A stretch of 64,000 nt of DNA from an uncultured Acidobacteriota bacterium. GTDB lineage: Bacteria; Acidobacteriota; Blastocatellia; RBC074. Positions within the stretch are counted from its first letter, which is position 1, and each line of letters starts with the position of its first letter. The notes under the pieces are model-generated. The model made no database searches and was not told the origin of the DNA. It saw nothing but the letters and a program-made list of their open reading frames with translations. This document shows, one piece after another, positions 2,081-44,198 of the stretch. The stretch is taken from contig CAWCKY010000007.1 in the NCBI GenBank assembly GCA_963796275.1, forward strand, positions 1 through 64,000, in the 5' to 3' direction. Position numbers and translations under genes: made by a program.

Positions 2081-2095
2081 CAGGAGTGATTTTAT

Positions 2096-3563: not shown

Positions 3564-3639
3564 CGTTCATCGGAAGCACACGAGAAGGCTGCTTCAGTGC
3601 GTCCGCAAGCGGTCTGACCGCCAACACGCCCCGGGCGAT

Positions 3640-4189: not shown

Positions 4190-4981
4190 ATGTGGAAGGC
4201 AATATTTGCGTTGACATTGCTGGTTCTGCCTATGAGCGCCCAACAAAAGCGGCAGCTTAATGACGGCGAAATGCACGGAGATCCGCCGTTTCTACTGGAA
4301 GACGGATGGACGCCGCTGCTGAACGGAAAAGACCGCACGGGCTGGCACGGTCAGGGCGCCGACCAGAATCAGTGGCTCAGTACCACCGGCGTCTTGTGGG
4401 AGCGTTTGTTGGGGCCGACGCGACTCAGCGCTATGGGCCGCGGGTCGGGCGGCACGATTCTGAACGGGCCTTCTGGCAGGACAGTCAATCTGGTAACGGA
4501 TCAGAAGTTTGGCGACGTTGAGTTGTACCTGGAGTTCGTGCTCGCCAAAGGCTCGAACTCGGGCATCTACTTGCATGGCCTTTACGAAGTCCAGGTCTTC
4601 GATAGTTGGGATTCGACCGAGCCGGTGACGACGTCCGATTGCGGCGCCATCTATCACCGCTGGATCGACAATCTGGGCGTGGGCGGGTCGGCGCCAAGCC
4701 GCAACGCCTCGCGGCGACCCGGCGAATGGCAGTCGTTTTACATCTGGTTCCGCGCACCGCGCTTCGACGCTACGGGGAAAAAGACCGAGAACGCGAAATT
4801 CATTCGGGTCCTGCACAATGGTCTTTCGGTTCAAAACTATGTTGAAGTAGACGGGCCGACGCGAGCGGCGATGGGGCATGCCGAAGCGCCGCTCAACCCG
4901 ATAATGTTACAAGGCGACCATGGGCCGGTGGCGTATCGGAACATTTATGTGCGCTCGCTTCGGGAGATCATCAAACGATGA
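4190..4981 (+). CDS. DUF1080 (3-keto-disaccharide hydrolase-like) secreted protein
   Basis: Signal peptide; GWTPLLNGKD, NSGIYL, YEVQVFDS, GEWQS, LQGDHGPVAYRNI. Confidence 0.9.
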   Translation: MWKAIFALTLLVLPMSAQQKRQLNDGEMHGDPPFLLEDGWTPLLNGKDRTGWHGQGADQNQWLSTTGVLWERLLGPTRLSAMGRGSGGTILNGPSGRTVNLVTDQKFGDVELYLEFVLAKGSNSGIYLHGLYEVQVFDSWDSTEPVTTSDCGAIYHRWIDNLGVGGSAPSRNASRRPGEWQSFYIWFRAPRFDATGKKTENAKFIRVLHNGLSVQNYVEVDGPTRAAMGHAEAPLNPIMLQGDHGPVAYRNIYVRSLREIIKR

Positions 4982-28255: not shown

Positions 28256-28846
28256 ATGCGAAATTCACAAATCCAGCCTGAAGTATCGCGACAGCTTGTC
28301 CTGACGGCAGCCAACCCCCCGGCCAGCCCAGAAGATGAGATCGCGCCGAATATCGAAGACCAACTGGTGGAGGTCTTCCATAAGTTGAGCATCCCTGTGT
28401 TTTGGTATCTGAGACGGATCGGCCTTTGCCCGGAGGAAGCGGAAGAGATCGTTCAGGAAGTCTTCCTGCGTCTCTTCCAGCATCTCGATGCAATAGAGGA
28501 GCAAGGCCATATGCGAAGATGGGTCTTTCGTGTCGCGCACAATCTGGCGATAGACCAGCATAGACGACAAAGACGTTTCACTCTTAAGAGCCCGCAAGAA
28601 TGGACAGAATTGAGCGACCTGGTTCGAGATCGAGCCATCAATCCTGAAGAGCGGCTGCTCGAGGAAGAGCGGATCGCCATGCTCGAGCGGGCCCTTGGCA
28701 CGTTGACTAGCCGGCAAGCGCAATGTCTCGATTTAAGAATGGAGGACTTGAGCTATCGTGAGATTGGCGCGCTGCTCGGGGTAAGTGTCTCGACCGTAGC
28801 TGGAGCTCTGAAACTGGCGATCCTGAAGTTACGCGAGAGCGGATAG
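28256..28846 (+). CDS. ECF-family sigma-70 factor
   Basis: AEEIVQEVFLRL and WVFRVAHNLAID (region 2); LSYREIGALLGVSVSTV (region 4). Confidence 0.93.
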   Translation: MRNSQIQPEVSRQLVLTAANPPASPEDEIAPNIEDQLVEVFHKLSIPVFWYLRRIGLCPEEAEEIVQEVFLRLFQHLDAIEEQGHMRRWVFRVAHNLAIDQHRRQRRFTLKSPQEWTELSDLVRDRAINPEERLLEEERIAMLERALGTLTSRQAQCLDLRMEDLSYREIGALLGVSVSTVAGALKLAILKLRESG

Positions 28847-29006
28847 TGCAGGCGGCGAGCGGCGTAACTCATCCAAAATGCGGCTCGCGTCCAACCTTAA
28901 AAGAAGAAAAATAGACCGTGAAAAATGAATAAACCCCAAGGAAGATCGAGAGAACCTTACCACCAGCGGCAGTATCTCGGGTTTCCTTGATGAAGGAAGG
29001 AACACA

Positions 29007-30107
29007 ATGAGGAGGGAAACGAACGCGAGGACCGGCCTTCCATGCGGCGTCGAAATCGTTTCGGCTCGGGATTTCTCAGGGCTCGAGGTGGAAATACCAG
29101 CGAGCTTCGAGTTGCGCTTTCCTCAGTGTTGGATTGCGCAGCCGGTTCAGAACCGGTACGCAGTGGCGATTGAGCGCGAGACCCTCGCCTGGCTCGCGTC
29201 TTATGGCATCGGGCGGAGCCGCGACGAGGCGGAGAAACTGCGCAAGTTCAACTGTGGCTTATACGGCGGATACTCGCTCCCCGCAGCGAATTACCAGGCG
29301 GCGCTCCTGGTGACTCAGTTCATCTCGCTCTGGCTATTCTGGGACGATGCGCAGGTCGAGGAGGAAGACGACTTTTGCATCGAGGTGGTTCTCGAAGCAT
29401 TGATCGGCGCCACCGAGCCGCGTGCGCCCTCCCGCTACGTGGCCGCCTGGACCGACATCGGACGGCGATTGCGCAGGACCCAGAGTGCCGCGTGGCTTGG
29501 TCGACTTGAGTCGACAATGCGGGAGTGGCTCGAAAACGCCAGGCTCGAGACACGCCTGGCGCAGGAGTTCAAGCGAGGCGTAGCCTGCCCGGACTTCAAG
29601 ACACTCTTCGATTGCCGGACTATCAGCATCGGCATGTTCCCGACATTCCACCTGATCGAGCTCGCCGAGGGATTCGAGCTTGATGGGTCGTTCCACGGGC
29701 ACGACTCAGTGATAGCGCTCAAGCGATTGGCTTCGCGGCTTGTGGGGGTGGGCAATGACCTCGGTGGTCTGGCGAAGGACATCAGCAACCGATGGCTCAA
29801 TCTCGTTCTCGTCCTGATGGAACAGTCTTCCCTGAATATCGAAGACGCGTTCCAGCGGATCGTTGACATCCACAATGCCGATGTCGAGGAGTTCGACCGT
29901 CAGGCGTTGGAGATGCCGAGCCGGGAGTATTGGACCGACGCCCTTATTCGCGGCTGGGTTCAGGCCGTGCGCCACAATGTCTTTGGTTTCACGTTGTGGG
30001 AGTCCACTGCCGAGCGTTATCAGGAATCCAAAGCCATTGCGGGCAGGAAAGCATTGATCGCTCCTGTCGCGCTCGTTCGCGTCCGCCCTCCGGCGCAGGC
30101 GGCATAG
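29007..30107 (+). CDS. Class I terpene synthase (variant metal-binding motifs)
   Basis: WDDAQVEE (DDxxxE), RTISIG pyrophosphate-sensor Arg, NDLGGLAKD (NSE variant), WESTAERY (WxxxxxRY). Confidence 0.85.
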   Translation: MRRETNARTGLPCGVEIVSARDFSGLEVEIPASFELRFPQCWIAQPVQNRYAVAIERETLAWLASYGIGRSRDEAEKLRKFNCGLYGGYSLPAANYQAALLVTQFISLWLFWDDAQVEEEDDFCIEVVLEALIGATEPRAPSRYVAAWTDIGRRLRRTQSAAWLGRLESTMREWLENARLETRLAQEFKRGVACPDFKTLFDCRTISIGMFPTFHLIELAEGFELDGSFHGHDSVIALKRLASRLVGVGNDLGGLAKDISNRWLNLVLVLMEQSSLNIEDAFQRIVDIHNADVEEFDRQALEMPSREYWTDALIRGWVQAVRHNVFGFTLWESTAERYQESKAIAGRKALIAPVALVRVRPPAQAA

Positions 30108-30123
30108 AAAAAGAGCTTTTGAC

Positions 30124-30522
30124 ATGCGCGTTGACGAGTACAACTGGAAGCTGGAGCAAATGATGGACGCGACGGCATCAGGCTACGTTGCGGCTGTGAA
30201 AGCTCACAAGCCTGAATGCCTGTATCGCGATTTCTGCTTATGGGGAGTAGCGCGGGATAACCCCCATCGCTCGACGGTAATGCAACTGACGGGAGCCTTA
30301 CAGCTGGCGAAACTTGTGACCAGACTGTATGACGCCGCTCTCCTCGTCCGATTACAAAACAACATCGGCACTGGGTTGTTTACTTGTGATAACTCGACCC
30401 GTCTAATGCTCGCGCACAAACTTATGAAAAGAAGCGGAGAGCGCGAGGATGAGAGCCTCGTCGAGTTATTAGTAAGAACCGGTAAGGAGTATGCCGTGAT
30501 GATATCGCCTGTCAGGAGCTGA
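30124..30522 (+). CDS. Hypothetical protein or gene remnant within the terpene cluster
   Basis: 132-aa ORF starting 16 bp after the terpene synthase stop, same strand. No motif recognised. Confidence 0.45.
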   Translation: MRVDEYNWKLEQMMDATASGYVAAVKAHKPECLYRDFCLWGVARDNPHRSTVMQLTGALQLAKLVTRLYDAALLVRLQNNIGTGLFTCDNSTRLMLAHKLMKRSGEREDESLVELLVRTGKEYAVMISPVRS

Positions 30523-30640
30523 CGCGCGCGCATCCTTGAGAGAAGTAAAATTGACCACGAGCAATGAATAACATGAAGAAAGATCGAGCAGATCATTCGC
30601 GCTCTTCATTGCTTCCCGCTTGATTTTCTGAGGAGGCGAC

Positions 30641-31680
30641 TTGGAACAACGTAACTTGTTACTCGAGAGCTCGCTGATTCCCTCGGCGACTATGCTCGAC
30701 CATGTCATAGACCTGAAAATCGGCGGGCCGGTGGGTGACTGGTTGGATGAAACACTACTGATGCCCGTCTCGGACATACTGGGCGTCCGTCGAAACGGTT
30801 TCGCGCGAAGCTCGTGCAGTTTGGGTGCCTGTTGACCAGCCAATATTCCGATCTGACTGACACCGAGCGCGAGCTATGTCACCGATTAGGTGACCTGATC
30901 GAGTTGCTTCACGCCGGGTCTCTGGTGGTGGACGATATCGCGGATCAGAGCCAGGTGCGCCGAGGCCAGCCGTCCATTCACCTGAAATACGGCTTGCCCG
31001 TGGCGCTCAACGCGGGCAACTGGCTCTATTTCTGGCCGTTGATGTTAGTCGCCGCGATGCGACTGCCGCCGGAAAAGGAGCTTTGGGTGCATCGCCTCTG
31101 CCACCACATAATGATGAAATTACATTGCGGCCAGGCCCTCGATTCCGGCGTCCGAGTCGATACTCTGCCACAAGAGAAAGTAGCCGGCGTCTGCCTGGCC
31201 TCGATGGAGTTGAAGACCGGCGCCATGACCGCTCTCGCTCTCTCGCTCGGCTCGGCGGCGGCAGAATCGCCAGCGGAAGACTTTCCGGCCCTGGATGAGT
31301 TCGGCCATAGCTTTGGCGTCGCCCTGCAGATGTTCGACGATATCGGAAATCTGCAAGGCCGTAAGGAACTGGAAAAACGATATGAAGACCTGATCGCACG
31401 GCGGCCCTGCTGGGTCTTGGCCTTCGCCGCGCAGAATCTCCCGGGACAGTCCTATCGAACGTTCATTGAAGCGATTCAACTCCTCCCCGATGACGGGCCA
31501 CTGCAAGACTGGATAGCTGAACAAGATTTTCTCAACCAGGCGCGTCGCGACGCGCTCAAGTACCTCGAACTGGTCTTTCAAAGATTCGAGAGCGCTTTAG
31601 GACCGGAGCGTCATAACAAAGCCGAGGCGTTGGAGAGGCTACATCTATTAGGTAAACAAGTCTCCGACAGTTATTACTGA
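30641..31680 (+). CDS. Trans-polyprenyl diphosphate synthase (GGPP synthase-like), with one frameshift near 30780
   Basis: RBS GAGGAGG with TTG start. KRFR motif after the shift, then ELLHAGSLVVDDIAD....RRG (FARM), GQALD, KTG and QMFDD (SARM). Confidence 0.88.
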
Positions 31681-31754
31681 GAGCTTCCATTCACCGATTA
31701 TGTCTGCCGCCGAGCTGATTATCGAGTCGCAGAATACCAAGGAGCGTCACATAG

Positions 31755-33302
31755 ATGGCTTACGCTGAAAATGAGTGTCTGACCGAGCTGCGGAATCTGG
31801 TTCTCGAACTCGGCCGGGATGGTGGCCTCATAAGCCCGTCGGTCTATGACACTGCGCAGGTTCTGCGATTGTCTCCCTTAACCGGCGACTGCGCGAGCAC
31901 GGTCGCCTGGCTGATCGCCCGGCAGCATTCCGACGGCGGATGGGGGCATCCATCGGCGACCCGCGCCCGCGACCTGCCGACGCTGGCCGCGGCTCTGGCT
32001 TTGCGCGCACAGCGCGGTTCCAAAGACGCTTCCGACGCGGCTCAGGCGGGATTCGCCTTTCTGCGACGCTATGCGCAGCAACACTGGTCCGAACCGCTGG
32101 CCGATGATCTGCCGGTAGGGATCGAGCTGCTGCTGCCGCGATTGCTCGGCGAGGCGGCATCTCACGGGATCGATCTGCCGGCCAAGCCGTATCAGTCGCT
32201 GCGAGCGCTTGGTACTCGCAAGCGACTGATAATCGCGGCAACGAAGCCGAGCGCGGGCTCGGGACCGGTGTACTCCTGGGAGGGGTGGGGATTTCAGGCC
32301 GCCCCGGAAGTTATAGACGGTTCCGGCGGCGTAGGACATTGCCCCGCGGCCACTGCCGCATGGCTGGCGATGACGGCAAAACGCAATGACCTTAATGGGG
32401 TTTTTAACCGAGCTGCGCGCCGGTTTTTGAAAACAGCCTCCGCAGCCTCCGGCGAGAGCGACTCCAGCTTAATGCCTGTTGTTTGGCCTATCAATCGCTT
32501 TGAACAGATAGGGGGGCTCCACGCCCTCTCCCTTGCCGGCTTGGTTGACCATCCTCAGCTGCGAGACGCGGCGCGAGCCCAAATTCTCGACCTCAGCCAC
32601 GCGTTGCGTCCGGACGGAATCGGCAAGAGCGATCATTTCAGCGTTAATGGCGATTGCACATTTATGGCGATCGCCACGCTGATCGCTGCTGGACATCAGG
32701 TCAATAGCCGCGTGATATATCGTTTCCGGCAGAAAAATTCCTTCATCACCTATCCGATCGAGCTTCAACCCTCCTTGACTGCGACCGCTCACGCCGTGCT
32801 AGCGCTGGCACGCGCTCGCGACGATGTCAGCTGCTTCGCGCGATATCTCGAAAGCAAAGAGTCGCCCGACGGCCGTTGGGTCGGCGACAAGTGGCACAAT
32901 TCGTGGTTGTACACCACGGCGGAAGTGATCATTGCGTTGGCACAGGCTAACCGGACAAAGGCCCTGCCAGCCGCGGTCGCCGCGCTGCTCTGGCATCAGC
33001 GTGAGGGTGGCGGATGGGGCTGCGCCGATCGCCCGACGCTGGCGGAGACCGCATACGCAGCATTGGCGCTCCACATGCTCCGCTCGCGCGGCACTTGCAC
33101 CAAACAGGTTCACCTTGCGCTTGAGCGGGCCGCCGCGTGGCTCGCCGATAACTACGAAGCAATGTCACCGCGAAATGACATCTTCTGGATATCCAAGGAA
33201 CTCTACTGCCCCTACCGGGTCGACCGCGTGTTTATTTTGAGCGCCGTTCTCGCTCTCCATCAAGAATGCGGCGGGAGGAGTAACAATAACAATGCTGCAT
33301 AG
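31755..33302 (+). CDS. Class II (protonation-initiated) beta-gamma diterpene cyclase, copalyl/kolavenyl/halimadienyl-PP synthase-like
   Basis: SPSVYDTA, QW repeats QHSDGGWG and QREGGGWG, PAATAAW, DKWHNSWLYTT, ETAYA, WISKELYCP. The DxDD position reads NGDC. Confidence 0.88.
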   Translation: MAYAENECLTELRNLVLELGRDGGLISPSVYDTAQVLRLSPLTGDCASTVAWLIARQHSDGGWGHPSATRARDLPTLAAALALRAQRGSKDASDAAQAGFAFLRRYAQQHWSEPLADDLPVGIELLLPRLLGEAASHGIDLPAKPYQSLRALGTRKRLIIAATKPSAGSGPVYSWEGWGFQAAPEVIDGSGGVGHCPAATAAWLAMTAKRNDLNGVFNRAARRFLKTASAASGESDSSLMPVVWPINRFEQIGGLHALSLAGLVDHPQLRDAARAQILDLSHALRPDGIGKSDHFSVNGDCTFMAIATLIAAGHQVNSRVIYRFRQKNSFITYPIELQPSLTATAHAVLALARARDDVSCFARYLESKESPDGRWVGDKWHNSWLYTTAEVIIALAQANRTKALPAAVAALLWHQREGGGWGCADRPTLAETAYAALALHMLRSRGTCTKQVHLALERAAAWLADNYEAMSPRNDIFWISKELYCPYRVDRVFILSAVLALHQECGGRSNNNNAA

Positions 33303-33539
33303 AGGAACTATATGAGTGCAGCGATGCGACCTGATTCTGGCGTGCTGGAATATCCTCGTCTTCGGTGACTCCTGCACATCCTCCGTGTCGTATGAAGATT
33401 TCGAGCGACTGGCCGGGAGGTGGAACGGGCATTCGTAAATTCCTTCACGCCGATTATGGCGATGATGATGCCCGAATTATTGACATTCAGCTTGGTCGTT
33501 TAATTCTATGCCGAATTGCCGCGTAGTAACACGATGAGT

Positions 33540-33905
33540 TTATTTCGGCGTTTCAACGCCGGCACCGCCATCCATCACACATTGCGTCACCTTGTGACTC
33601 CTGACTTCAACCGTCGCTATGCAACGCAACGCTCTGATAATACCTACCGGCGTTGATGTTGTTTGAAAATAAATGCAATTACGCAGGGGCAGACCTATGT
33701 GTCATTTGTGTCAAGATAAGCCGTAATCTTCGTAACATCTGGCCACTGAGCGCCCCTTTGGGACATAGGAGCCAGCCTTATTCTTATCTTGGCGCATGAC
33801 CTATGTGTCGGCCCCGGAGTGCGCAACTGTGAACCGGGGGCAGACAACAGGTTAAACATCGGCCTGCCCCCTACGTTGGATGACGTGGTTGCAGCAATTT
33901 TTCAA
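33540..33905. repeat. REP-like palindromes and possible RAYT transposase remnant
   Basis: Palindrome cggcgtttcaacgccg; two copies of gacctatgtgtc; ggggcagac...ctgcccc pairing; a PTLDDVV..FK-like fragment. Confidence 0.4.
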
Positions 33906-34158
33906 ATTCAACCTCAGGTCTACGATTGCGCGTCTTTTTTACAATAGGCGTCCTGAAAATATTGAAAAGTTTGACTCAAGGCAGAACGGGAATAATTTAA
34001 ACGGCACACCGAAAAAAATCGCCTGAAACCGTTATAGAGGAGCATGCTGATTAGGCGTGGATTGCTGGGTAGAAGGGGATATCCGCAGCTTGGATGAAGC
34101 CTGAATGATGGGTTTATATCTCGCAAGGTCGCGAAGGCGTGGGGGCGCAATTAGTGAA

Positions 34159-35463
34159 ATGAGCTGTTCAGTCGAAACATCACTTTGGAACGATTTTTCA
34201 CGCATGTCATACCAGCAGCGCGCTGGCCGCATCGCCGAACTGGCGCGTCTCGACCAGGCTTCAATTGAAGCGTTGAGTGGCCGCACGGTCACGGCGGATA
34301 TCGGGTTGGCAGAAAGATGCGTGGAGAACGCCATCGGCTATTTCGCGGCGCCCCTGGGAGTCGCCGCTTATATGCTTATTGACGGACGCGACGTCGTCGT
34401 GCCGATGGCCGTCGAGGAGACATCGATCATCGCCGCGGCGTCGAGCGCCGCAAAATTCTTCTACCCCCACGGCGGCGTCACCACCAGAACCGAAGGCACC
34501 CTGGGTATCGGCCAGATCCAGATACCGAGGGCGAGAGATTCGGGTCGCATCATAGAAACTGTTATAGCCAATCACGACCTGCTGCTCGCTTGCGCCAATG
34601 AACTGGTACCAGGCTTGATCGCTCGCGGCGGCGGGGCGCAGCGCATCGAAGGGCGCGTTTTGCCTGGAATGGTAGTGGTCTATATCTATGTAGACACCTG
34701 CGACGCGATGGGCGCCAACCTGATCAATCAGATATGCGAAGGACTGAAGCCCCTCATTGAGGACTTGACCGGGGAAGAAGTCGGCGTCTGCATTCTTTCG
34801 AACCTGACTGACACGCGCATGTCGTTTGCGACTGCGCGCGCACGACAGATTGACCGGCGTCTGGTCGACGGGATCGTCAACGCCTATGAGTTCGCCGCGC
34901 AGGACCATTACCGCGCCGCGACGCACAACAAGGGAATCCTCAACGCCATCGACGCTATTTTATTGGCGACGGGCAATGACTGGAGGGCGATGGAGGCGGG
35001 CGCTCACGCTTACGCGGCCCTCGGCGGACACTACCGCCCGTTGTCGCGCTGGCGTCGTGAGGGTGACGACCTGGTCGGCGAGATCAGGCTGCCTACATCT
35101 GTTGGGATGGTAGGCGGTATGACCGGGATTCATCCGACCGCGCGAGCATGCCTGAAGATACTGGGCGCACAGACGGCTGCTGAACTGGGCCGAATCTGCG
35201 CCGCCGTCGGCTTGATACAGAACTTCGCGGCGCTACGCGCGCTGTCGACCGTCGGTATCGTCAAAGGCCATATGAATCTGCATGCGCGGAACCTGGCGGT
35301 TCTCGCCGGAGCGAATCAGGAAGAACAACCCATGTTAGTCGAGAAGCTGCGCGAGGAACTACTGCATAAAAATCGGATAACGCTGACCCAGGCGCAGGAC
35401 ATTTTGTTAGATATCCGAAACAACGCGGTAACAGGAGGCGCGCTTATGTCGCCCCGTGAGTGA
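34159..35463 (+). CDS. mvaA: HMG-CoA reductase, class II
   Basis: ENAIG, MAVEETSIIAA, DAMGAN, RAATHNKG, GNDWRA, GIVKGHMNLH. Confidence 0.95.
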   Translation: MSCSVETSLWNDFSRMSYQQRAGRIAELARLDQASIEALSGRTVTADIGLAERCVENAIGYFAAPLGVAAYMLIDGRDVVVPMAVEETSIIAAASSAAKFFYPHGGVTTRTEGTLGIGQIQIPRARDSGRIIETVIANHDLLLACANELVPGLIARGGGAQRIEGRVLPGMVVVYIYVDTCDAMGANLINQICEGLKPLIEDLTGEEVGVCILSNLTDTRMSFATARARQIDRRLVDGIVNAYEFAAQDHYRAATHNKGILNAIDAILLATGNDWRAMEAGAHAYAALGGHYRPLSRWRREGDDLVGEIRLPTSVGMVGGMTGIHPTARACLKILGAQTAAELGRICAAVGLIQNFAALRALSTVGIVKGHMNLHARNLAVLAGANQEEQPMLVEKLREELLHKNRITLTQAQDILLDIRNNAVTGGALMSPRE

Positions 35464-35560
35464 CGCCCTGTGAGACTGAAAATAGCATGGGAGTTCAAGC
35501 TTTAGCCAAAGCTTTAACCTGGCATCTGCCATTGAAAGTTACATACGGAGGATTCTTAAC

Positions 35561-36808
35561 ATGGTCGGAATGGAAGCTTTGGCCTTTTCAGTGCCGCAAT
35601 ACTATATCAACTTAAGTGACCTGGCGGTCGCGCGGGGAATTGACCCGGACAAGTATACCGTCGGTCTTGGCCAACGCGAGATGTCCATCGCTACACCTTG
35701 CGAAGACGCTGTTACTCTGGCCGCCGGAGCGGGACAGCGGCTGCTAGCCAGCTTCGACGTCGATCCGGGGTCCATCGCCTTGCTCATTGTCGGCGCCGAA
35801 ACCGGGATTGATCATAGTAAGCCGATCGCCAGTTACGTTCATGAGTTACTCGGCTTATCCACTCTATGTCGATCTTTCGAGATCAAACATGCATGCCACG
35901 GCGGCATGGCCGGACTATTTACGGCTTCGCAGTGGACAATGTCAGGTCGCGCCGCGGGCAAGAAGGCTCTCATCATCGCCACTGATATCGCGAGATACGG
36001 AGTTGGAGCGCCTGGCGAGCCGACGCAGGGGGCCGGCGCCGTCGCGATGCTGATTTCGGACAATCCAGCGTTGCTCGAGTTCGACACGGACGCCGAAGGC
36101 TACTACTCGAAACAGGTCATGGACTTTTGGCGCCCTATCTACAGCAAAGAGGCCTTCACCGACGGCCACTATTCAATATCCTGCTACCTCGACGCCTTGC
36201 AATACTCCTACGCTGCCTATCGCCGTGATTCCGGCCGCGACGGCGACCCGCATTTTGCGGACCGCTTCGTCGCCTGCCTTTATCACGCGCCGTTCGTGAA
36301 GATGACTCAGAAGGCTCATCAGCGATTGTTGGAGACCGACGCAGGGGCGCCGTTCGCATCCGACAGCCCCGAGATGCAAAGCGCCAGAGATGACTTTGCC
36401 AGGCGAGTGGTGCCTTCGCTGGAGATCAATGCGCGCGTGGGCAACATCTACACCGGATCGCTTTTTCTGTCGCTGGTCAACTTTCTTGAAGACCAGGCCG
36501 AGGGTAACGCCGGGCGCACGATCAGTCTATTCAGTTACGGCAGCGGCTGCCAGGCCGAGTTCATCACCGCCAGAGTCGGAGAGCGGGCTGGACAGGCGAT
36601 GAAACGACAAAGTTTTCGAACGGTTCTGGACGCTCGCACGCGCCTCGACGTGCGTCGCTACGAAGAGATTCTCGAGGCGAACGGAGTGGCAGATCTCAAC
36701 GATTCGAAGGTTTGCGACCCGGAGGTCTGGGGCGTCGCGGGACCATTCGTATACGCAGGGGCGCATAACCATCAGCGGCAGTACGTCAGCCGATCTTCGA
36801 CAATTTAG
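35561..36808 (+). CDS. mvaS: HMG-CoA synthase
   Basis: ETGIDHSK, IKHACHGG (catalytic Cys), GEPTQGAGA, DFWRP, GNIYTGSL, FSYGSG. Confidence 0.96.
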   Translation: MVGMEALAFSVPQYYINLSDLAVARGIDPDKYTVGLGQREMSIATPCEDAVTLAAGAGQRLLASFDVDPGSIALLIVGAETGIDHSKPIASYVHELLGLSTLCRSFEIKHACHGGMAGLFTASQWTMSGRAAGKKALIIATDIARYGVGAPGEPTQGAGAVAMLISDNPALLEFDTDAEGYYSKQVMDFWRPIYSKEAFTDGHYSISCYLDALQYSYAAYRRDSGRDGDPHFADRFVACLYHAPFVKMTQKAHQRLLETDAGAPFASDSPEMQSARDDFARRVVPSLEINARVGNIYTGSLFLSLVNFLEDQAEGNAGRTISLFSYGSGCQAEFITARVGERAGQAMKRQSFRTVLDARTRLDVRRYEEILEANGVADLNDSKVCDPEVWGVAGPFVYAGAHNHQRQYVSRSSTI

Positions 36809-37037
36809 CCGGAGTTGAGTACGGCCTCGATTGATGAATGGCCGTCTCGATTACGACTCCTAACGCCGCCTTCCTGGACCACGCGTATAAAAAGAGCTCT
36901 CACGGATATGGCGAACTACCAGATATGTTATGTCAACGAATATTTTTTCTCTTGAAAAGGAGATCAAAGAAACATATCCCTTCCAATCAGGTTATCGCCC
37001 GGCGTGACGAATACGTTATCTGCTAATCATTGCTGCT

Positions 37038-38090
37038 ATGGATATCGAACAGTTCGAACAACGGAAGCAGGATCACATCGCGCACTCATTGAGCACGGTC
37101 AACCAGGCCATAGGCATGAGCGGCCTGGAATCCATCCATCTATATCACGAGGCCATCCCGGACCTCGACTTCGAAGAGATCAGCCTAGTAACGACATGTT
37201 TCGGAATGGTGTTACCCACGCCCTTTTACGTCGCGAGTATGACGGCGGGACATGCGGACGCATTGAGCATCAATTGGATGCTGGCGCAGGCATGCCAGGA
37301 GCGCGGATGGGCTATGGGAGTGGGTTCGCAGCGCCGCGAATTGGAGGCCCGATTGGACGCCCGAGCGATAGATGATTGGCAGAGTCTTCGCCGGGCGGTT
37401 CCGGGCCTCGCGCTATTCGCCAACATCGGCATAAGCCAACTGATCAAGGCAGAGGTCTCAGATATCCGTCATCTCGTCGAGTCGCTCGATGCCCAGGCTC
37501 TGTGTGTTCACCTCAACGCATTGCAGGAGGCGATCCAGCCGGAGGGCACTCCGCAGTTCAAGGGGGCCTGGCGGGCGATCGAAACTCTCTGTCGCGAGTT
37601 GGGTTGTCCCGTCATCGTCAAAGAGACCGGATGTGGTTTCCACCGTTCGACGCTGCGCCGCCTCGCTCAGATCGGTCCGGTGGCGCCTTCAGCAGTAGAT
37701 GTCAGCGGACTCGGCGGCACACACTGGGGAAGGATCGAAGGCGCGCGCGCAGGCTTCCACACGCTGCATCAGTCGGCCGCCGCGACTTTCGCCAACTGGG
37801 GAGAGGCTACCGTCGAGAGCGTGCTGGCGGCGCGATTGGAGCTGTCTCCTCAGACGGAGATATGGGCGTCGGGAGGGGTTCGGTCCGGCCTCGACGCCGC
37901 CAAGCTTATCGCACTTGGGGCTCATCGCGTCGGCTATGCGAAGCCCGCACTGGATGCGGCGCTCACCGGGCCAATCGAACTGCGCCGTTGGATGGAGTTG
38001 CAGGAGTACGAGCTGCGAGTCGCTTTGTTCTGCTCCGGCTGTGCCACTACCGCCGTTCTGCGGGACAAGACTGGCTCGTGGGAGATGTAG
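37038..38090 (+). CDS. fni: Type 2 (FMN-dependent) isopentenyl-diphosphate delta-isomerase
   Basis: RKQDHI, SMTAG, GVGSQR, HLNALQEAIQPEG, VKETGCG, GGTHW, ASGGVR. Confidence 0.96.
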   Translation: MDIEQFEQRKQDHIAHSLSTVNQAIGMSGLESIHLYHEAIPDLDFEEISLVTTCFGMVLPTPFYVASMTAGHADALSINWMLAQACQERGWAMGVGSQRRELEARLDARAIDDWQSLRRAVPGLALFANIGISQLIKAEVSDIRHLVESLDAQALCVHLNALQEAIQPEGTPQFKGAWRAIETLCRELGCPVIVKETGCGFHRSTLRRLAQIGPVAPSAVDVSGLGGTHWGRIEGARAGFHTLHQSAAATFANWGEATVESVLAARLELSPQTEIWASGGVRSGLDAAKLIALGAHRVGYAKPALDAALTGPIELRRWMELQEYELRVALFCSGCATTAVLRDKTGSWEM

Positions 38091-38224
38091 GGAGATTTTA
38101 CGAGACGCAATCAGGTTATCCGAGGAGATACCAAGCGCAAAGCGCAACGGGCTCCACGCGTACCACTCGCACAACATCTGCGCCGATCGGGTTCGTCCAG
38201 CGCTTGATATGGAGATTTTATAAG

Positions 38225-39169
38225 GTGTGTAGTTTCGATATTGCCGGGAAAGTTTTTGTTTTGGGTGAGTACGCGGTCCTGGGCGGATTGCCCGCTCTGG
38301 TGGCCGGCGTCGCCCCGCGCTTCTCCGGTTCGCTGCGTGAGGCTATGGATGAAGGCCCCTACTGGCACGCGGACAGCCCTGTAGGCCGCCTACTGCGCTG
38401 GGCCCGGGAACACTGCGGGGTGAGATTCTCCTTCCATTTCGAGGACCCTTATCATAGTGGGGGCTTCGGCGCTTCGACAGCGCAGTTTGCCATTGCCTAT
38501 GCCGCTGGGGCTGTGCGGCTCGGGTTGAGTTGCGATTGGCGAACCGCATGGCAGTTCTACCGCAAATTGACGGGCGCTGATGAAACGACTCCGAGCGGCG
38601 CCGATCTCGTCGCTCAGCTGCGGGGAGGAGTAACCCTCTTCAATCCGGTTTCGCTGAGCTGCGCGGACATCTGGGACGAATTCGACTGGTCGCGGCTGCT
38701 GGTCTTTGCGCCGAATGCGCAACCTGATCGAAAGGTCGCCACACACGTTCACCTCAAAGAGTTTTCCCTGGGAAGCCAAGAGATCGATCGCACCCAGCTG
38801 TTTTCCCGTTTGGCGGACCCCTTAAAAAAAGGCCTCACAGCGATAGATCGAAAGAGCGTCTACGATCTGGGCGCGGCGATGGATTGGTACGCCGACGCGC
38901 TCGCCGAAAACGGCCTGGAGGCACGTGTCACTTTCGAGGACCGGCGGGCGCTCAGGGCGATGCCGGGCGTGTGCGGAGCGAAGGGTGCCGGCGCTATGCA
39001 AGCAGATGTTGTACTTGCGCTCATGACGCCGGACGCGGATGCAGAGCCGATTATTCGGTCGGCACGGACACGCGGGTTGAAGCTGATATGTCATGGGTTG
39101 ACGCGGCAACCCGGAATCCAACCCCTTTTGCCACAGAAACACGGAGCCACGGAGCTTACGAGTAGGTAA
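38225..39169 (+). CDS. GHMP kinase, probable phosphomevalonate kinase
   Basis: GKVFVLGEYAVL, GGFGASTA, PSGADL, KGAGA. Likely GTG start after GGAG; the upstream part of the 597-aa ORF overlaps fni and is spurious. Confidence 0.8.
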   Translation: MCSFDIAGKVFVLGEYAVLGGLPALVAGVAPRFSGSLREAMDEGPYWHADSPVGRLLRWAREHCGVRFSFHFEDPYHSGGFGASTAQFAIAYAAGAVRLGLSCDWRTAWQFYRKLTGADETTPSGADLVAQLRGGVTLFNPVSLSCADIWDEFDWSRLLVFAPNAQPDRKVATHVHLKEFSLGSQEIDRTQLFSRLADPLKKGLTAIDRKSVYDLGAAMDWYADALAENGLEARVTFEDRRALRAMPGVCGAKGAGAMQADVVLALMTPDADAEPIIRSARTRGLKLICHGLTRQPGIQPLLPQKHGATELTSR

Positions 39170-39180
39170 AGGATATTCAT

Positions 39181-40200
39181 ATGCCTCAGGGAGCGATTTT
39201 CGAGATTCCATTTCCGTCGATGATCAATCCACATCTGGCGCCGGCGCGTGCCGCCAATCTTTCCTGGGTCCGCGCCCGTGGCCTGGCGCGCAGCGAGGCC
39301 AGGATGGAGGAGTACCTGTCGTGGGACCTGCCGCAGCTGACCGCCCGGACCTATCCATATGCCGACCGCGCCGATCTGGAAATGCTGATGAACTTTTTCA
39401 GCATTTTTTTCCTTATTGATGACGAGTTCGATGAACCGCAGGGCGACCGGCGGGCGCAACTGGCCGCGGTGACCCAGGAGATGATCACCATCCCGTTTCG
39501 TCCGGCAGGAGCCCCTCCGGACATCGTCTGCCCGATCACGCTGGCATGGGTCGAAGTATGGACGGACATGCGCCGCGGGATGTCGGAAACCTGGCAGAAC
39601 CTATTTGCATCGAACTCGGCGCGTTTCCTCACCGCCAGCTTGGAAGAGGAGCGCCTTGCCGCCAGCTCGGCGGTATTGGATCTCAACTCGTACGTGGAGC
39701 TGCGCCGCCATAGTGTGGGCGTCTATCACGGATTCGATTTGGCCGAGCGGAGCCGGGGCTTCGAGGTCCCGCCTCACGCGCATTCCCACCAGCGGATGCG
39801 CGACCTTCGCGCCGCTGCGACGGACACAATCGGGTTCATGAACGATGTGCATTCTCTAGAGCGGGACGAGCGCAAGGGCAAATCCTATAACCTAGTCGCT
39901 GTACTGCGAAGGGAACTCCGCTGTTCCCGGGCGGACGCCATTGAACGGGCTGTGCGGATGGCCCGCGAGCGGCTCAAGGCGGCACTCGAATTGCAAGCGA
40001 AGAGCCCGCACATCAGCGCCGAACTGAGACTTTCCAGCAACGAGTGCGTGGCGGTGGAACGGGGTGTGGAGGGAATCCGGAACTGGATCCGCGGCTACCA
40101 CGATTGGGCCTGTCAGAGCAGAAGGTACGCGGCGTCAGGCCCGATCGAATCATCGCTGGCTCCTGTCCGGCATGAGGATGATCTACTGGCCCTGACCTGA
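39181..40200 (+). CDS. Class I terpene synthase (pentalenene-synthase-like fold, canonical motifs)
   Basis: DDEFD, RRHSVG, NDVHSLERD, NLV, WACQSRRY. Confidence 0.95.
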   Translation: MPQGAIFEIPFPSMINPHLAPARAANLSWVRARGLARSEARMEEYLSWDLPQLTARTYPYADRADLEMLMNFFSIFFLIDDEFDEPQGDRRAQLAAVTQEMITIPFRPAGAPPDIVCPITLAWVEVWTDMRRGMSETWQNLFASNSARFLTASLEEERLAASSAVLDLNSYVELRRHSVGVYHGFDLAERSRGFEVPPHAHSHQRMRDLRAAATDTIGFMNDVHSLERDERKGKSYNLVAVLRRELRCSRADAIERAVRMARERLKAALELQAKSPHISAELRLSSNECVAVERGVEGIRNWIRGYHDWACQSRRYAASGPIESSLAPVRHEDDLLALT

Positions 40201-40283: not shown

Positions 40284-41387
40284 ATGCAACTAACTGTGTG
40301 CGCCCTCGCTCCATCTAACATAGCGATAGTTAAATACATGGGAAAGCAGGACGACGCGACCAACATACCTGAGAACCCGAGCCTGTCAATGACGCTGAAC
40401 AGGCTGCGCAGTTGCGTGGAGATAACTTGCGCCAACGCGGATGGCCCGGCTGAGGCGACGTGGGTGCCAGAGCCTCCGCTTCTGTGGAGCAGACAGGCGA
40501 GTCTCAAACTCGAAGTCCCGCGTCTCGATGAAGCTGGAATAGCCCGCTTTTTGCGCCACTTCGAGCGCGTGCGTCGTGCCGCGCCGGCGATACTTGCGAG
40601 ATACGGAGTACCGATTACCGCGCAGGATGGAGAGAGGTGCTCTTATCTGATTCGAAGCGGGAACACCTTTCCGTCGTCGACCGGCATCGCATCGAGCGCC
40701 GCCAGTTTCGCCGCACTGACATTGGCGACGGCGATGACGCTCATAAGCGATCAAGCAGCATTTGACGGCACCTGGGAATCGGAAACGGGTTTGCGAAGAG
40801 ATATGGCGAGCCTGTCGCGACAAGGATCAGGCAGCTCTTGCCGCTCGTTTGAAGGTCCCTGGGTCGGATGGGAGGCGGATCGCGTTTTTAAAATGAATGC
40901 CTCGACGCCGGAGCTTAGCCACTTCGTTTTGCTGGTCAGCGACGAGGCCAAGAAGATTCCTTCTTCCAGGGCCCACCAGCTCGTTAAGGAATCACCGCTA
41001 TGGACGGGGCGCGTGGAGCGCGCGAGCGCGCGATTCGAGCAGGCCTGCAGGGCACTATCTGAAGGAGACCTGACCCGCCTCGCCCGAATCGCGTGGAGAG
41101 AAGCCTGGGAGATGCACAGCTTATTCCACACTACGGCTGAGCCTTTCTCATATTGGCGCCCCCGCAGCATAGAGTTACTTCAGTGGCTCGCGCCGGCGAT
41201 CAACGGGCCGGCACCTGCCATCGTTTCGCCCCCGATCGTCTCGATGGACGCCGGTCCGAACGTGCATCTGATCGTCGAGGCGGCAGATGCTGATATGTGG
41301 CGTGAGAGATTGATTCGCCGTTACGGCGCGGGCGCTTTCCTCGAAGATGAGCCGGGCGACGGCGCCGCCCCATTCGGGCGATGTTGA
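40284..41387 (+). CDS. mvaD: Diphosphomevalonate decarboxylase
   Basis: APSNIAIVKYMGK, NPSLSMTL, GIASSAASFAAL, RQGSGSSCRS, MDAGPNVH. Confidence 0.95.
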   Translation: MQLTVCALAPSNIAIVKYMGKQDDATNIPENPSLSMTLNRLRSCVEITCANADGPAEATWVPEPPLLWSRQASLKLEVPRLDEAGIARFLRHFERVRRAAPAILARYGVPITAQDGERCSYLIRSGNTFPSSTGIASSAASFAALTLATAMTLISDQAAFDGTWESETGLRRDMASLSRQGSGSSCRSFEGPWVGWEADRVFKMNASTPELSHFVLLVSDEAKKIPSSRAHQLVKESPLWTGRVERASARFEQACRALSEGDLTRLARIAWREAWEMHSLFHTTAEPFSYWRPRSIELLQWLAPAINGPAPAIVSPPIVSMDAGPNVHLIVEAADADMWRERLIRRYGAGAFLEDEPGDGAAPFGRC

Positions 41388-43332
41388 TGAAGCTCTATCA
41401 CCACCCAACATAACAATGTTTTCATTACCACTTATGACTGACTTGCGGCATAGACCGGGCGCCGCCAACAGACCCGTCCCGAACCCTGATGCCGATGTAA
41501 AAAGGGCGATCGGATTTCTGCGCGAGCGATGCGCCCCGAATGGATTTCCCTCTTTTGTTTCCCCAGATCCCGGCTTTTCTTCGCAGGTCGAGTCCGCCGA
41601 AGAAGTGTTCACGTCCATGCTGATTCTGCGCTCATTTGATGACTGTGGCCTGGACGCGCCAGGTGAGAAACGTCAACTTGAGAGAGTTTGTCGGTCTTTC
41701 ACTCGGCAGGGTTTCGTTCACTTTTTTGCGGACCGCGGCATGCTCGCGGCGGACGTCGACTGCACAGCGGCGGGGATCGAGCTGGCGCTCAAGCGCGGCA
41801 TATCGCTGGCTTTCGACGTCAAGCGCGTACTGGATGTCATTGCCGCGAACGTCGACGATTCCGGTGTGCTATGCGTCTATCTCGATCCCGATGAAAGTCG
41901 AAAGGATCGCGTGGACGCGGCCGTCTGCGCCAACACGCTCTACCTCTTTTATATGCTCGGCCGCGAAGCCGATCTGAAGGCTTCCGAGCAATACGTCTGG
42001 AATCAACTTACGGGGATCCGGTTCTCGGAGGGAACGCGCTATTACCCGTCCCCTGACATTTTCCTGCTGTTCCTGTCACGACTGCTCGCTGATTTTGAAC
42101 GCTCCCGAGCCCGTTTTGCAGCTGCGGTGGAATGGCGGATTCGCGAACGACTCGGCCTGCCCGGATCGAATGTCGAGCTTTCCGCACGCGTGACAGCGGC
42201 GTGGAAAGTGGGGTTACACGCGGAGCGGGAGTTGGATGAACTCGCGCGTGCCCAGAGAGTCGACGGCTCGTGGCCGGCCGCGCCCTGCTTCCGATTCGGA
42301 CGCCGGCCGGTGTATTTCGGCGGGGAGAGCCTTTCCACAGCCTGGGGCGCATGCGCCCTGATGATCGGTTCGCGGCGCCTTCCACGCACGGCGCTCGCGA
42401 GAGAAGTCGTCATGGACGGCTCCGGCGGATCGCGACTCAGCGAGCGGATCACCTATCCGTTTGGTTGTTTCGAATTGAATGCGGATCAGATTGAGCTGGT
42501 CCGAGACGAACTTGCCAGCCTGTCCGATCGCTACCAGCTCTTCGAGGGGCGGGAGGAGTGGAATCACATCCTCCTGACCTTCATCACCTATTGCTCCGCA
42601 CGCAGCCCCGAGGACGACGCCCTACGTCTGCTCTGTCATTTTCTGTATATGACGGTGTTTTTTAACGAGGCCCGCTCGCGGGGGCTGAATCGGGATTTAG
42701 CGCTCAACTACGCGGGAATTATGAGAGGCGGGCAAGCGCGCGCTTCCCATCCCGTACTCAGTGCCGCGCGAGATTTCCGTCTGCGGTTCGATCGGCTGCT
42801 CGCGGCGAAGGAGAGCGACGCCTCGGCCTTTTTCCATTACTTCGGTCTCAACATCTCCTCCTTCTTGCGAGACGCGACGGCCGACCATTCCGATCCTCGC
42901 GACCCGCGCACATCCCTGTGGGTGCGATTACACTCCATTTCCGCCCTTGCCTACTTCCAATTCTGGAAACTGCTTCTCAGGGTCGGCGCGCGCGAGGAAC
43001 TGCCTCACGCCACTGACATCTTCCGGTGTGAAATGCTGTCGGCCAGAATTCAAAGCCTCGCTAACGATATCTGTTCTATCGAAAGGGACGCGCGCGAGGA
43101 CTCTCTGAATATAGTATCCGTAGTTGCCCAGCGCGAGAACATTCCGTACAAGCTGGCGTTGAGTACGGTTCGACGATGGCACGACGACGCCGTAACGGAG
43201 TACGCCGACGCCACCCGCCGCGCGAGCAAGGTTACTCCGCCAGGCCCGGTTGCCGATTACCTGGAATTCATTGAGTCCTGCACAGCAGGGAACGTGCAGA
43301 GCATGCTTTCCCTTGCGTCCAGGTATTCATAA
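41347..43332 (+). CDS. Putative bifunctional terpene cyclase: class II beta domain fused to a class I alpha domain (true start may be 41416 or 41434)
   Basis: N-half: DVDCT, RVDAAVCANTLYLF, GTRYYPSPDIFL, QRVDGSW. C-half: RLHSIS, NDICSIERD, NIV and terminal RY. Confidence 0.8.
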   Translation: MSRATAPPHSGDVDEALSPPNITMFSLPLMTDLRHRPGAANRPVPNPDADVKRAIGFLRERCAPNGFPSFVSPDPGFSSQVESAEEVFTSMLILRSFDDCGLDAPGEKRQLERVCRSFTRQGFVHFFADRGMLAADVDCTAAGIELALKRGISLAFDVKRVLDVIAANVDDSGVLCVYLDPDESRKDRVDAAVCANTLYLFYMLGREADLKASEQYVWNQLTGIRFSEGTRYYPSPDIFLLFLSRLLADFERSRARFAAAVEWRIRERLGLPGSNVELSARVTAAWKVGLHAERELDELARAQRVDGSWPAAPCFRFGRRPVYFGGESLSTAWGACALMIGSRRLPRTALAREVVMDGSGGSRLSERITYPFGCFELNADQIELVRDELASLSDRYQLFEGREEWNHILLTFITYCSARSPEDDALRLLCHFLYMTVFFNEARSRGLNRDLALNYAGIMRGGQARASHPVLSAARDFRLRFDRLLAAKESDASAFFHYFGLNISSFLRDATADHSDPRDPRTSLWVRLHSISALAYFQFWKLLLRVGAREELPHATDIFRCEMLSARIQSLANDICSIERDAREDSLNIVSVVAQRENIPYKLALSTVRRWHDDAVTEYADATRRASKVTPPGPVADYLEFIESCTAGNVQSMLSLASRYS

Positions 43333-44198
43333 TGTGGGTTAAGTTTAAAACCTGTCTACCAGGAAAATGGGTCCTGGTTGGAGAACATGCTGTGATGCGC
43401 GGCGGTATGGCCATCGTCTTCCCTTTCCCGGAAGTGAGCCTCTGCCTCGACTTTGTTCCGCAACGAAGCAAAAAGCTGAAAGTTACTCCGCCGGACGCTG
43501 AGCCAGTGATACATGAGCTACTCAGAACTTATGAAAGTTGGAGGAGTGGGAATGACGGGTTTTCCTTGCCCATGGGCAGCCTGACCATTCAGAGCGATAT
43601 ACCTCAAGGCGCCGGCCTCGGCTCTTCAGCCGCTTTGTGCTCGGCTGTGGCGCGGTGGATCGCCAGCGCCACAGGTCTTCCGTTAACTGAGCTGGCTGAA
43701 CTTGCGCGCTGTTTGGAGTCCCGTTTTCACGGCGCCAGCAGTGGCATGGACATCGCGGTCGTGCTTGCCAATGCGCCGATCGTATTCGAGAAAGGCGGTC
43801 AGCCGCGAATACTGAAGCTCGGGAGAATTCCCCATTTCACTCTGCACGATACGGGGTTGCGGTCGAACACTTCCGATTGTGTCTCACGGGTAAAGACATT
43901 CATAGCCAGAAATCCGAAGAGGGCTACCGCCGTAGACCGGGCGATGGACGCTGCGTCATTCCAAGCGTTGAAAGGGCTATTGAATTACGGCCGCGGTGAA
44001 GAACAGGCCGGGTTGAAGGCGATCGCCGAAGGAATGCGAATGGCGCTTGATTGTTTTGGCGCCTCGAACTGGGACCTGATTTCCGGAGACGAAGAGCGAT
44101 TGATCCGGTCGCTGCTGAACGATGGCGCGTTGGCCGTGAAGCCGACGGGGGCAGGTGGAGGCGGTATGGCACTGGCGCTCTGGGATCGCCCAGGATGA
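43332..44198 (+). CDS. Mevalonate kinase (GHMP family)
   Basis: PGKWVLVGEHAV, PQGAGLGSSAA, FHGASSGMD, KPTGAGGGG. The start overlaps the upstream stop (TAATG). Confidence 0.9.
   Translation: MWVKFKTCLPGKWVLVGEHAVMRGGMAIVFPFPEVSLCLDFVPQRSKKLKVTPPDAEPVIHELLRTYESWRSGNDGFSLPMGSLTIQSDIPQGAGLGSSAALCSAVARWIASATGLPLTELAELARCLESRFHGASSGMDIAVVLANAPIVFEKGGQPRILKLGRIPHFTLHDTGLRSNTSDCVSRVKTFIARNPKRATAVDRAMDAASFQALKGLLNYGRGEEQAGLKAIAEGMRMALDCFGASNWDLISGDEERLIRSLLNDGALAVKPTGAGGGGMALALWDRPG

Follow-up and report, generated by a model that had tools for sequence, protein, structure and literature searches.

The stretch of DNA analysed here, hereafter the window, comprises 64,000 nucleotides (positions 1 to 64,000 of the forward strand of contig CAWCKY010000007.1, assembly GCA_963796275.1) from an uncultured Acidobacteriota bacterium. 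Within it, between two genes of the mevalonate pathway, lies a fusion gene whose product joins an N-terminal beta domain of the class II terpene cyclases to a C-terminal domain of the class I alpha type (Table 1). The original prediction, drawn from the letters alone, had described an uninterrupted frame of 661 amino acids, and 41347-43332 on the plus strand is indeed fully open, forming a single frame of 661 codons that closes with TAA at 43330-43332, with stops abounding on the opposite strand. The motifs that it had picked out are likewise all present: DVDCT at residues 136-140, RVDAAVCANTLY at 188-199, GTRYYPSPDIFL at 229-240, QRVDGSW at 303-309, GSGGS at 358-362, RLHSIS at 527-532, NDICSIERD at 573-581, and the pair RY at 659-660, one residue before the C-terminus. 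Such a set of motifs is far above chance expectation. The real start of the gene is probably later than 41347, either at ATG 41434 (M30) or at ATG 41416 (M24). Starting at the first ATG (41347) entails a 41-base overlap with the upstream decarboxylase gene; the database gene call for the protein (P0002, 638 aa) begins at M24; the orthologue P0003 and that of the metagenomic locus L004, described below, begin at the equivalent of M30, ATG 41434; and residues 1-41 are disordered in the AlphaFold2 (AF2) model, with some 45 disordered residues ahead of the barrel. At the other end, the TAA overlaps the ATG of the mevalonate kinase gene as TAATG.

Table 1. Features of the fusion gene (residues numbered in the 661-codon frame) and of the terpenoid island in which it lies, with positions in the window
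Feature	Position	Strand	Basis or remark
Longest beta-alpha frame	41347..43332	+	661 codons + TAA
Class II beta domain (barrel at residues 47-342)	41485..42372	+	AsDMS/AstC matches, Foldseek, pLDDT mostly >90, PF28380
DVDCT, D136-x-D138-C-T140	41752..41766	+	D138 aligns with the AsDMS general acid, which is changed to N in the 9m7d structure
Supporting residues of the class II active site, K186, R188, N196, Y232, Y233 (in RKDRVDAAVCAN ... GTRYYPSPD)	41902..42057	+	counted on AsDMS/AstC alignments
F315, F317, R320	42289..42306	+	align with AstC Y446, Y448, K451
Disordered interdomain linker, residues 345-365, containing GSGGS	42379..42441	+	pLDDT <50; length and sequence variable between orthologues
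Class I-type terpene synthase alpha domain, non-canonical, residues 366-661	42442..43329	+	PF19086, Foldseek, family profile
N440-E441-A-R-S444 (FNEARS) at the DDxxD site, one carboxylate remaining	42664..42678	+	aligned with canonical synthases
R527, putative diphosphate-sensor arginine, 46 residues before N573	42925..42927	+	44/44
NSE/DTE triad NDICSIERD (N573, S577, D581)	43063..43089	+	aligns with NDvlSypkE of T-muurolol synthase
C-terminal RY pair (R659, Y660)	43321..43326	+	R 42/44, Y 43/44
Diphosphomevalonate decarboxylase, upstream neighbour	40284..41387	+	PF22700, PF18376; TIGR01240 142 bits, below cut-off 171
Mevalonate kinase, downstream neighbour	43332..44198	+	
Island remainder	28256..40200	+	extracytoplasmic function (ECF) sigma factor first, then the genes below
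Class I synthase, WDDAQVE at Asp-rich site	29007-30107	+	
Polyprenyl synthase	30814-31680	+	small residues (G, S) before first DDxxD
515-aa squalene-cyclase-like class II cyclase	31755-33302	+	
3-Hydroxy-3-methylglutaryl-coenzyme A (HMG-CoA) reductase	34105-35463	+	NAD-type/'degradative' class, TIGR00532 347 bits
Kinase-like open reading frame (ORF)	38150-39169 (start approximate)	+	
Eudesmol-synthase-like class I synthase	39181-40200	+	

That the N-terminal half is a single beta domain of the drimenol synthase type, with neither a gamma nor a HAD domain, had been proposed from its motifs, and sequence searches, Pfam, and an AF2 model compared by Foldseek agree on this point. In a sequence search of solved structures, residues 47-340 match the chains of AsDMS, a drimenol synthase in which a TC-beta domain of the same type is fused to HAD, at E 1.4e-27 with 26-27% identity, and residues 170-337 match the fungal enzyme AstC at E 3.3e-19; the precomputed family annotation for the protein is PF28380. 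The AF2 model, built from a 50-sequence alignment with a mean predicted local distance difference test (pLDDT) score of 89.6, contains one confidently modelled helical barrel and no gamma domain, for which, residues 1-41 being disordered, there is no room. Foldseek aligns the beta half with ten chains of AsDMS at E values from 7e-17 to 6e-15 and a root-mean-square deviation of 2.2-4.1 A over 306-319 columns, with 9m7f and 9mhs giving the best fold matches (E 7e-17). A Pfam scan of the fusion protein (P0001) detected no HAD domain, and PF19086, in the other half, was its sole match.

The residues that line the class II active site can be counted on alignments with the two enzymes, taking AstC numbers from the available portions of PMC13244436 and AsDMS numbers from those of bioRxiv 10.1101/2025.09.20.677545. 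K186, N196, Y233, F315, F317 and R320 pair with K314, N324, Y361, Y446, Y448 and K451 of AstC, and Y178, R188, Y232 and Y233 with Y373, R380, Y426 and Y427 of AsDMS. According to the same portions of PMC13244436, N324 and Y361 of AstC position the acid, Y446 and Y448 govern product selectivity, and K451 serves as a pyrophosphate sensor. The beta half retains the basic residues K186, R188 and R320 at the positions that meet the substrate diphosphate in AstC and AsDMS. Across 153 beta domains of the family (not de-duplicated, and limited to matches that cover 240 residues or more of the query half), D136 is found in 151, D138 in 142, T140 in 135, N196 in 147, Y232 in 146 and Y233 in 149, and cysteine is the most frequent residue at position 139 (105/153). 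DVDCT conforms to the pattern DxD(T/D/V/C)T of these cyclases, in which the general acid is the second Asp. Judged by its residues, the class II half looks fully competent.

The C-terminal half was expected to be a class I alpha domain, and an isoprenoid-synthase alpha fold is what AF2 and Foldseek return, in keeping with its Pfam match; it lacks, however, the DDxxD motif, an absence that the original prediction had passed over. Over residues 466-617 the profile PF19086 (Terpene_syn_C_2) scores 35.2 bits, above its cut-off of 23.7, with the match restricted to profile positions 47-198 and the part of the profile that holds the Asp-rich motif skipped. T-muurolol synthase (9hr3_B) is a fold match of the alpha half at Foldseek E 6.7e-8 and a template modelling (TM) score of 0.80; against bacterial sesquiterpene synthases as a group the scores are 0.77-0.81, all normalised to the target, and 1-epi-cubenol synthase resembles T-muurolol synthase in this respect. 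Moreover, a profile of 16 alpha relatives matches T-muurolol synthase at E 1.9e-21 over nearly its full length, and the closest ESM Atlas clusters of the alpha domain are terpene synthases.

When three canonical synthases (two from the window and T-muurolol synthase) are aligned with the alpha domain, their DDxxD faces N-E-A-R-S, and in the profile alignment fmDDqcD of T-muurolol synthase faces ylndrrs. Five of the six orthologues read I-E-x-R-x at this site. Because the motif is replaced in both the query and its orthologues, the domain is not a canonical class I domain. Conservation was counted in 44 family domains with 25-80% identity, eight of them from one 90% cluster. At the DDxxD site, Asp occupies the first position in two members and Asn in 27, the second position is D or E in 40, and the fifth is Asp in 11; none of the 44 has a complete DDxxD. 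N573, D574 and D581 are, by comparison, each found in 44/44 and S577 in 43/44. R527 is assigned as the sensor by the 46-residue spacing between arginine and NSE, which we take to be a rule of bacterial class I synthases. The near-invariance of R527, of the NSE residues and of R659/Y660 is not expected of a decaying domain. By this pattern the alpha domain retains its predicted diphosphate- and metal-B-binding residues and has lost the predicted ligands of metals A and C. The stretch WHDD at residues 611-614 was considered as a substitute metal site and rejected, since only its His is conserved (39/44) and T-muurolol synthase also has a His there.

The fusion is real and conserved. Five orthologues in other assemblies, 67-82% identical, have the same fused layout and are open through the linker. 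A metagenome scan matched 139 stretches and led to three confirmed loci: L004, with a fused orthologue of 650 aa; L005, with the N-terminal half as far as the contig end; and L006, with a fused relative, 40% identical, on an error-prone contig. A 540-nt contig from a different study spans 42189-42722 (residues 281-459, linker included) and differs from the window by 26 letters without a gap; the 23 differences listed bring 10 residue changes and no stop. A stop codon between the domains, one of the refuting features named at the outset, occurs neither in the five orthologues nor in the metagenome locus nor in this independent contig. Between the window and L004, the ratio of nonsynonymous to synonymous substitution rates (dN/dS) is 0.23 in the beta domain, 0.23 in the alpha domain and 0.64 in the linker, and both halves are under equal purifying selection. 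Relatives were not matched in genome contigs with either the single protein or a five-sequence alpha alignment as the query, and a first metagenome scan with the alpha alignment also gave no match. Among the sequencing runs listed for the gene, none was of RNA and the shares in DNA runs were small.

An exhaustive search of 1.84 billion representatives returned 639 proteins at E <=1e-3, of which the best 150 were taken, and 165 proteins were then sorted by phmmer with the two halves as queries. This yielded 15 beta-alpha proteins (the query counted twice and one fragment included), three alpha-beta, 17 with alpha matches only and 130 with beta matches only, 129 of these with one match and one with two. 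The alpha-beta order is assigned to P0009, P0068 and P0164 by phmmer and to P0110 and P0125 by Pfam. A Pfam run on ten longer family proteins places PF19086 above its cut-off in P0032, P0031, P0110, P0125 and P0164, N-terminal of the beta domain in the last three, and below cut-off in P0146; in P0049 and P0064 it detected no Pfam domain. The beta family is fused to HAD in P0078, and in P0154 (590 aa) a histidine phosphatase (PF00300, 56 bits) lies C-terminal of the TC-beta domain. From lineage to lineage the cyclase stays the same while its partner varies, being either a class I-type domain, placed before or after it, or a phosphatase, of which there are two kinds.

Two of these proteins deserve separate mention. 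The histidine phosphatase of P0154 is a third kind of diphosphate-handling partner beside HAD and the alpha domain. P0032 (1029 aa, on a lone 8300-nt contig) has an alpha-like/beta/alpha layout in which residues 24-179 are similar to geosmin synthase, in the N-terminal half of that enzyme (E 2e-15), and it reads WLVEARGRH at the expected DDxxD position, similar to the FLIEARSR of the query orthologues.

In a FastTree tree of 145 beta domains, from which nine near-duplicates and matches shorter than 240 residues were left out and in which 13 full-length beta-alpha proteins are represented, the six fused orthologues group together with support of 99. They lie within a larger clade of 20 rows, also supported at 99, whose other members are P0018 and 13 solo beta proteins at about 60% identity; P0022 falls just outside. 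Counting label changes on well-supported branches gives at least four for beta-alpha and at least three for alpha-beta, with long branches making the details unsafe. The two partners also occur as separate proteins. The P0018 (beta) and P0019 (alpha) clusters each include proteins on contigs of 41135 and 7541 nt, the P0019 alpha being 54% identical to the query alpha half, and a Polyangiaceae metagenome-assembled genome (MAG) is the source of P0022 (beta) as well as of P0021 (alpha), each on a contig of 6692 nt; by their equal nucleotide sizes alone, the split pairs appear to share contigs. For eight further solo alpha proteins, no beta contig of equal length was found among the minority of beta contigs whose lengths were available. 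Distribution among relatives is narrow: the fusion was detected in none of 40, and at E 1e-10 the alpha family was detected in none of 400 other genomes of the phylum.

The genes around the fusion supply a context in which its substrate could be made. Within the island the order is HMG-CoA reductase, HMG-CoA synthase, type 2 isopentenyl diphosphate (IPP) isomerase, the kinase-like ORF, the eudesmol-synthase-like synthase, the decarboxylase, the fusion gene and mevalonate kinase. L004 has the same order of kinase-like ORF, decarboxylase, fusion and mevalonate kinase, L005 that of kinase-like ORF, decarboxylase and fusion, and L006 a decarboxylase fragment upstream of the fusion. The other terpene genes differ in L004, where there are two synthases, a methyltransferase and a P450. 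We considered whether the fusion gene might itself be a mevalonate-pathway enzyme and rejected this, as all six functions are covered by its neighbours, one of them only by the kinase-like ORF.

The genome (9.46 Mb in 7 contigs, 94.7% complete, 5.2% contaminated) carries Dxr and IspH on other contigs, which makes the mevalonate genes an extra supply line. HMG-CoA reductase is single-copy here and was found in six of 40 relatives, in one of 24 of the same family and in neither of the two of the same genus (87% and 73% complete). The island reductase scores 313 bits against PF00368, as compared with 423-442 in the six relatives, and the lower score fits a foreign origin of the island. The terpenoid island was probably acquired.

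Several side observations concern the genes of this neighbourhood. The kinase-like ORF stands at the position expected of phosphomevalonate kinase (window 38150-39169, L004 5997-6929, L005 141-1070). It has no Pfam or NCBIfam match, and its only match in the PDB is a faint one to the mevalonate kinase 2hfs (E 0.065). The copies in the window and in L004 share 72% identity; the ORF carries GGFGASTAQFA and is possibly a very divergent GHMP-type kinase. A 597-aa ORF at 37376-39169 on the plus strand is a long-open-frame artefact, gene-like only in its last ~340 codons, and at its beginning it runs, in a different frame, over the gene of the type 2 IPP isomerase. Further upstream, a second terpene cassette, at 29007-33302, looks like a labdane-type diterpene set; the ORF of its prenyl synthase begins only at profile position 29, and its start or frame may be off. 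In L004 the variable part (683-5736) holds a terpene synthase, an S-adenosylmethionine (SAM) methyltransferase, a second terpene synthase and a P450, a pairing of synthase and methyltransferase that is reminiscent of methylated-terpene pathways. Elsewhere in the window, the product of the minus-strand ORF at 18153-20579 is a Ser/Thr protein kinase that carries a TonB domain at its C-terminus.

How does this layout compare with what is understood in other terpene synthases? The gamma-beta-alpha diterpene enzymes, reported from plants, fungi and five bacteria in the portions of PMC11469919 available, also place a class II module N-terminal to a class I alpha domain of the same chain and carry out their reactions sequentially on a single substrate. 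They have DxDD at the beta-gamma interface, whereas the fusion protein has no gamma domain, reads DVDCT and lacks DDxxD. The same portions describe a 2024 survey of 15498 bacterial proteomes in which only overlaps of gamma-beta plus alpha were sought. In AsDMS of Aquimarina spongiae (Protein Data Bank entries 9mhs, 9mlo and 9m7d-f), a TC-beta cyclase is likewise fused to a diphosphate-handling domain; there the partner is an N-terminal HAD phosphatase, while the fusion protein has a C-terminal class I-type alpha domain and no detectable HAD. AsDMS cyclises farnesyl diphosphate (FPP), and the drimenyl diphosphate so formed is hydrolysed stepwise at its P-O bonds by the HAD domain, as the accessible part of PMC13684600 sets out. 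The fungal enzymes AstC and AacA (22ty, 22tz) are HAD-fused and without an alpha domain; AacA releases a monophosphate and AstC a diphosphate, according to excerpts of PMC13684600 and PMC13244436. The mono-beta cyclase of Sorangium cellulosum Soce836 is, unlike the fusion protein, a stand-alone TC-beta enzyme. Its DxDVT at 134-138, Y176, R188, Y234 and Y235 carry nearly the same numbering as D136/D138, Y178, R188 and Y232/Y233 here, and in the available text of bioRxiv 10.1101/2025.09.20.677545 it converts FPP to a cyclic diphosphate without Mg2+, a product that its presumed HAD partner did not dephosphorylate. The fused clade is nested among solo beta proteins like the Soce836 type, and one solo beta/alpha pair comes from the Polyangiaceae MAG.

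Plant beta-alpha class I synthases share the order of beta then alpha in one chain; their beta domain is a silent relic of a gamma-beta-alpha ancestor and their alpha domain is canonical. The fusion protein is the reverse of this case, for its beta domain keeps the catalytic acid and its alpha domain is the degenerate one. The plant drimenol synthases VoTPS3 and PhDS, which make drimenol from FPP, are class I-type enzymes (PMC13244436, in the part available).

Taken together, we lean by a little towards a division of labour in which the beta domain would make a cyclic prenyl diphosphate and the alpha domain would then remove the diphosphate, and what the fusion gene yields is probably a cyclic terpene. 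The enzyme would in this case be a two-step terpene synthase assembled from two partners that also seem to occur as separate neighbouring genes. In the first step, for which conserved catalytic residues and characterised relatives are our guide, the single beta domain would bind a linear prenyl diphosphate, which is most likely FPP but may be geranylgeranyl diphosphate (GGPP), and D138 would protonate its terminal double bond to give a bicyclic diphosphate of the drimane or labdane type, probably without Mg2+. In the second, suggested by the fold, by motif conservation and by the kinds of partner domain to which the cyclase is fused elsewhere, the alpha domain would occupy the place that the HAD or histidine phosphatase takes in related fusions. 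The metal bound by the NSE triad, R527 and R659/Y660 would grip the cyclic diphosphate, and the C-O bond would be ionised with a reduced metal cluster, which is proposed because DDxxD is absent. The product might be an olefin or an alcohol, or its skeleton might be rearranged; the precursor would come from the dedicated, probably acquired mevalonate operon that encloses the fusion gene. We infer which step comes first, which substrate is used, and that the diphosphate leaves by ionisation and not by hydrolysis.

A precedent for a site of this kind is DabA, which has NDxxA together with an intact NSE and binds metals only on the NSE side, yet cleaves a prenyl diphosphate (bioRxiv 10.1101/2020.03.31.014811, in the text available). 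A suitable intermediate is also on record, as AstC releases drim-8-en-11-yl diphosphate, at least according to the excerpts of PMC13244436; this compound should be ionisable because it is allylic. By the same chemical reasoning, re-ionisation would be easy only where an allylic diphosphate is kept, that is, with a drim-8-enyl-type or a C20 labdane-type intermediate.

A number of points weigh against this two-step scheme. Of the DDxxD ligands E441 alone remains, and even the Asn of the query site is absent in five of the six orthologues; without the motif, canonical three-metal ionisation is impossible as such. Drimenyl (delta-7) or albicanyl diphosphate would be homoallylic and hard to ionise. 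The small residues before the first DDxxD of the island prenyl synthase suggest chains of C20 or longer. The interdomain geometry of the AF2 model is not confident (predicted TM score 0.58), and the adjacency of the split pairs rests only on equal contig sizes in nucleotides.

The loss of DDxxD would also be accommodated if only the class II half were catalytic and the alpha domain were a diphosphate-binding or scaffold module, so that the cyclic diphosphate would be released to other enzymes. Inactive terpene-synthase domains do persist structurally in plant-type synthases, and two further class I synthases in the island could take the product. We nonetheless hold a silent alpha domain to be unlikely: the metal-B triad, the Arg sensor and the RY pair are near-invariant in 44 members that diverge to 25% identity (25-80%), the dN/dS of the alpha half equals that of the catalytic beta half at 0.23, and it is the fusion, not the class I synthases beside it, that the window and L004 have in common.

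The resemblance to DabA also allows the alpha domain to be read as an intermolecular prenyltransferase, which would pass a prenyl diphosphate, cyclised or linear, to a small-molecule acceptor and so give a meroterpenoid or another prenylated product. DabA has the alpha fold, with NDxxA where DDxxD is expected, and keeps both the NSE and conserved diphosphate-binding arginines, a pattern that the fusion alpha domain matches; it has no metal at the Asp-rich site (bioRxiv 10.1101/2020.03.31.014811, in part), and the prevalence of Asn at the first position (27/44) and of D or E at the second (40/44) extends the likeness to the family. It is, unlike the fusion protein, a eukaryotic single-domain N-prenyltransferase of domoic acid biosynthesis, and the likeness seen is one of motifs: the family profile matches 71 solved structures, and the best 60 of these are all terpene synthases, with DabA not among them. 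Furthermore, the island holds no obvious acceptor-pathway gene, and the conserved partner of the alpha domain is a cyclase and not an acceptor-making enzyme. A transferase therefore seems improbable to us.

We give about as little credence to a reversed order of events, in which the alpha domain would act first, on a linear diphosphate, and its product would afterwards be protonated by the beta domain, or in which the two halves would make independent products from FPP. A class I step followed by protonation chemistry is found in geosmin synthase, and P0032 with its additional N-terminal alpha-like segment (alpha-beta-alpha) would suit such a sequence. However, R188, R320 and K186 at diphosphate-binding positions fit a diphosphate and not a neutral substrate, an alpha domain that lacks DDxxD is ill suited to the primary ionisation of FPP, and in related fusions the partner of the beta domain is a phosphatase that acts after cyclisation. 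Finally, an assembly or gene-calling artefact that joined two adjacent genes is scarcely credible, for although separate beta and alpha genes do occur in close relatives, the linker is in frame here, in the five orthologues, in L004 and in the independent contig, which has neither indels nor stops.

In the full-text literature searched, whose coverage excluded most subscription journals and supplements, a TC-beta domain fused to or paired with a class I-type domain was not described, and the belief expressed at the outset that no enzyme of this layout had been characterised holds within that literature. The November 2026 preprint version of PMC13684600, in the portions available, lists class I architectures of alpha, alpha-beta and alpha-beta-gamma and class II architectures of beta, beta-gamma and alpha-beta-gamma. 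The fusion protein is a previously undescribed domain combination within the known theme of bifunctional terpene synthases. The broader proposition, which we entertain seriously while stopping just short of favouring it, is that it stands for an undescribed bifunctional class in which a Mg-independent, gamma-less beta cyclase would hand its product to a DDxxD-less, NSE-only alpha domain that ionises it with a reduced metal cluster, giving access to skeletons beyond either class alone. Such a pairing would have arisen several times from neighbouring genes, in both orders, in uncultured bacteria, and would represent an active beta-alpha didomain without a gamma-beta-alpha ancestor.

The significance of the two-step scheme lies in the question that it poses, namely whether an NSE-only alpha domain can process a class II product. 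The recognition of single-beta class II cyclases is recent, and the partners known for them so far have all been phosphatases. If both halves work, the fusion would be a new coupling of protonation chemistry with diphosphate-removal chemistry, a natural test of the minimum set of metal ligands for a class I site, and a source of sesqui- and diterpene skeletons from soil Acidobacteriota-like and myxobacterial lineages. The alpha domain also points to a concrete candidate partner for the mono-beta cyclase of Sorangium, whose product the presumed HAD partner failed to process in vitro, and the layout bears on how beta-alpha synthases may have evolved.

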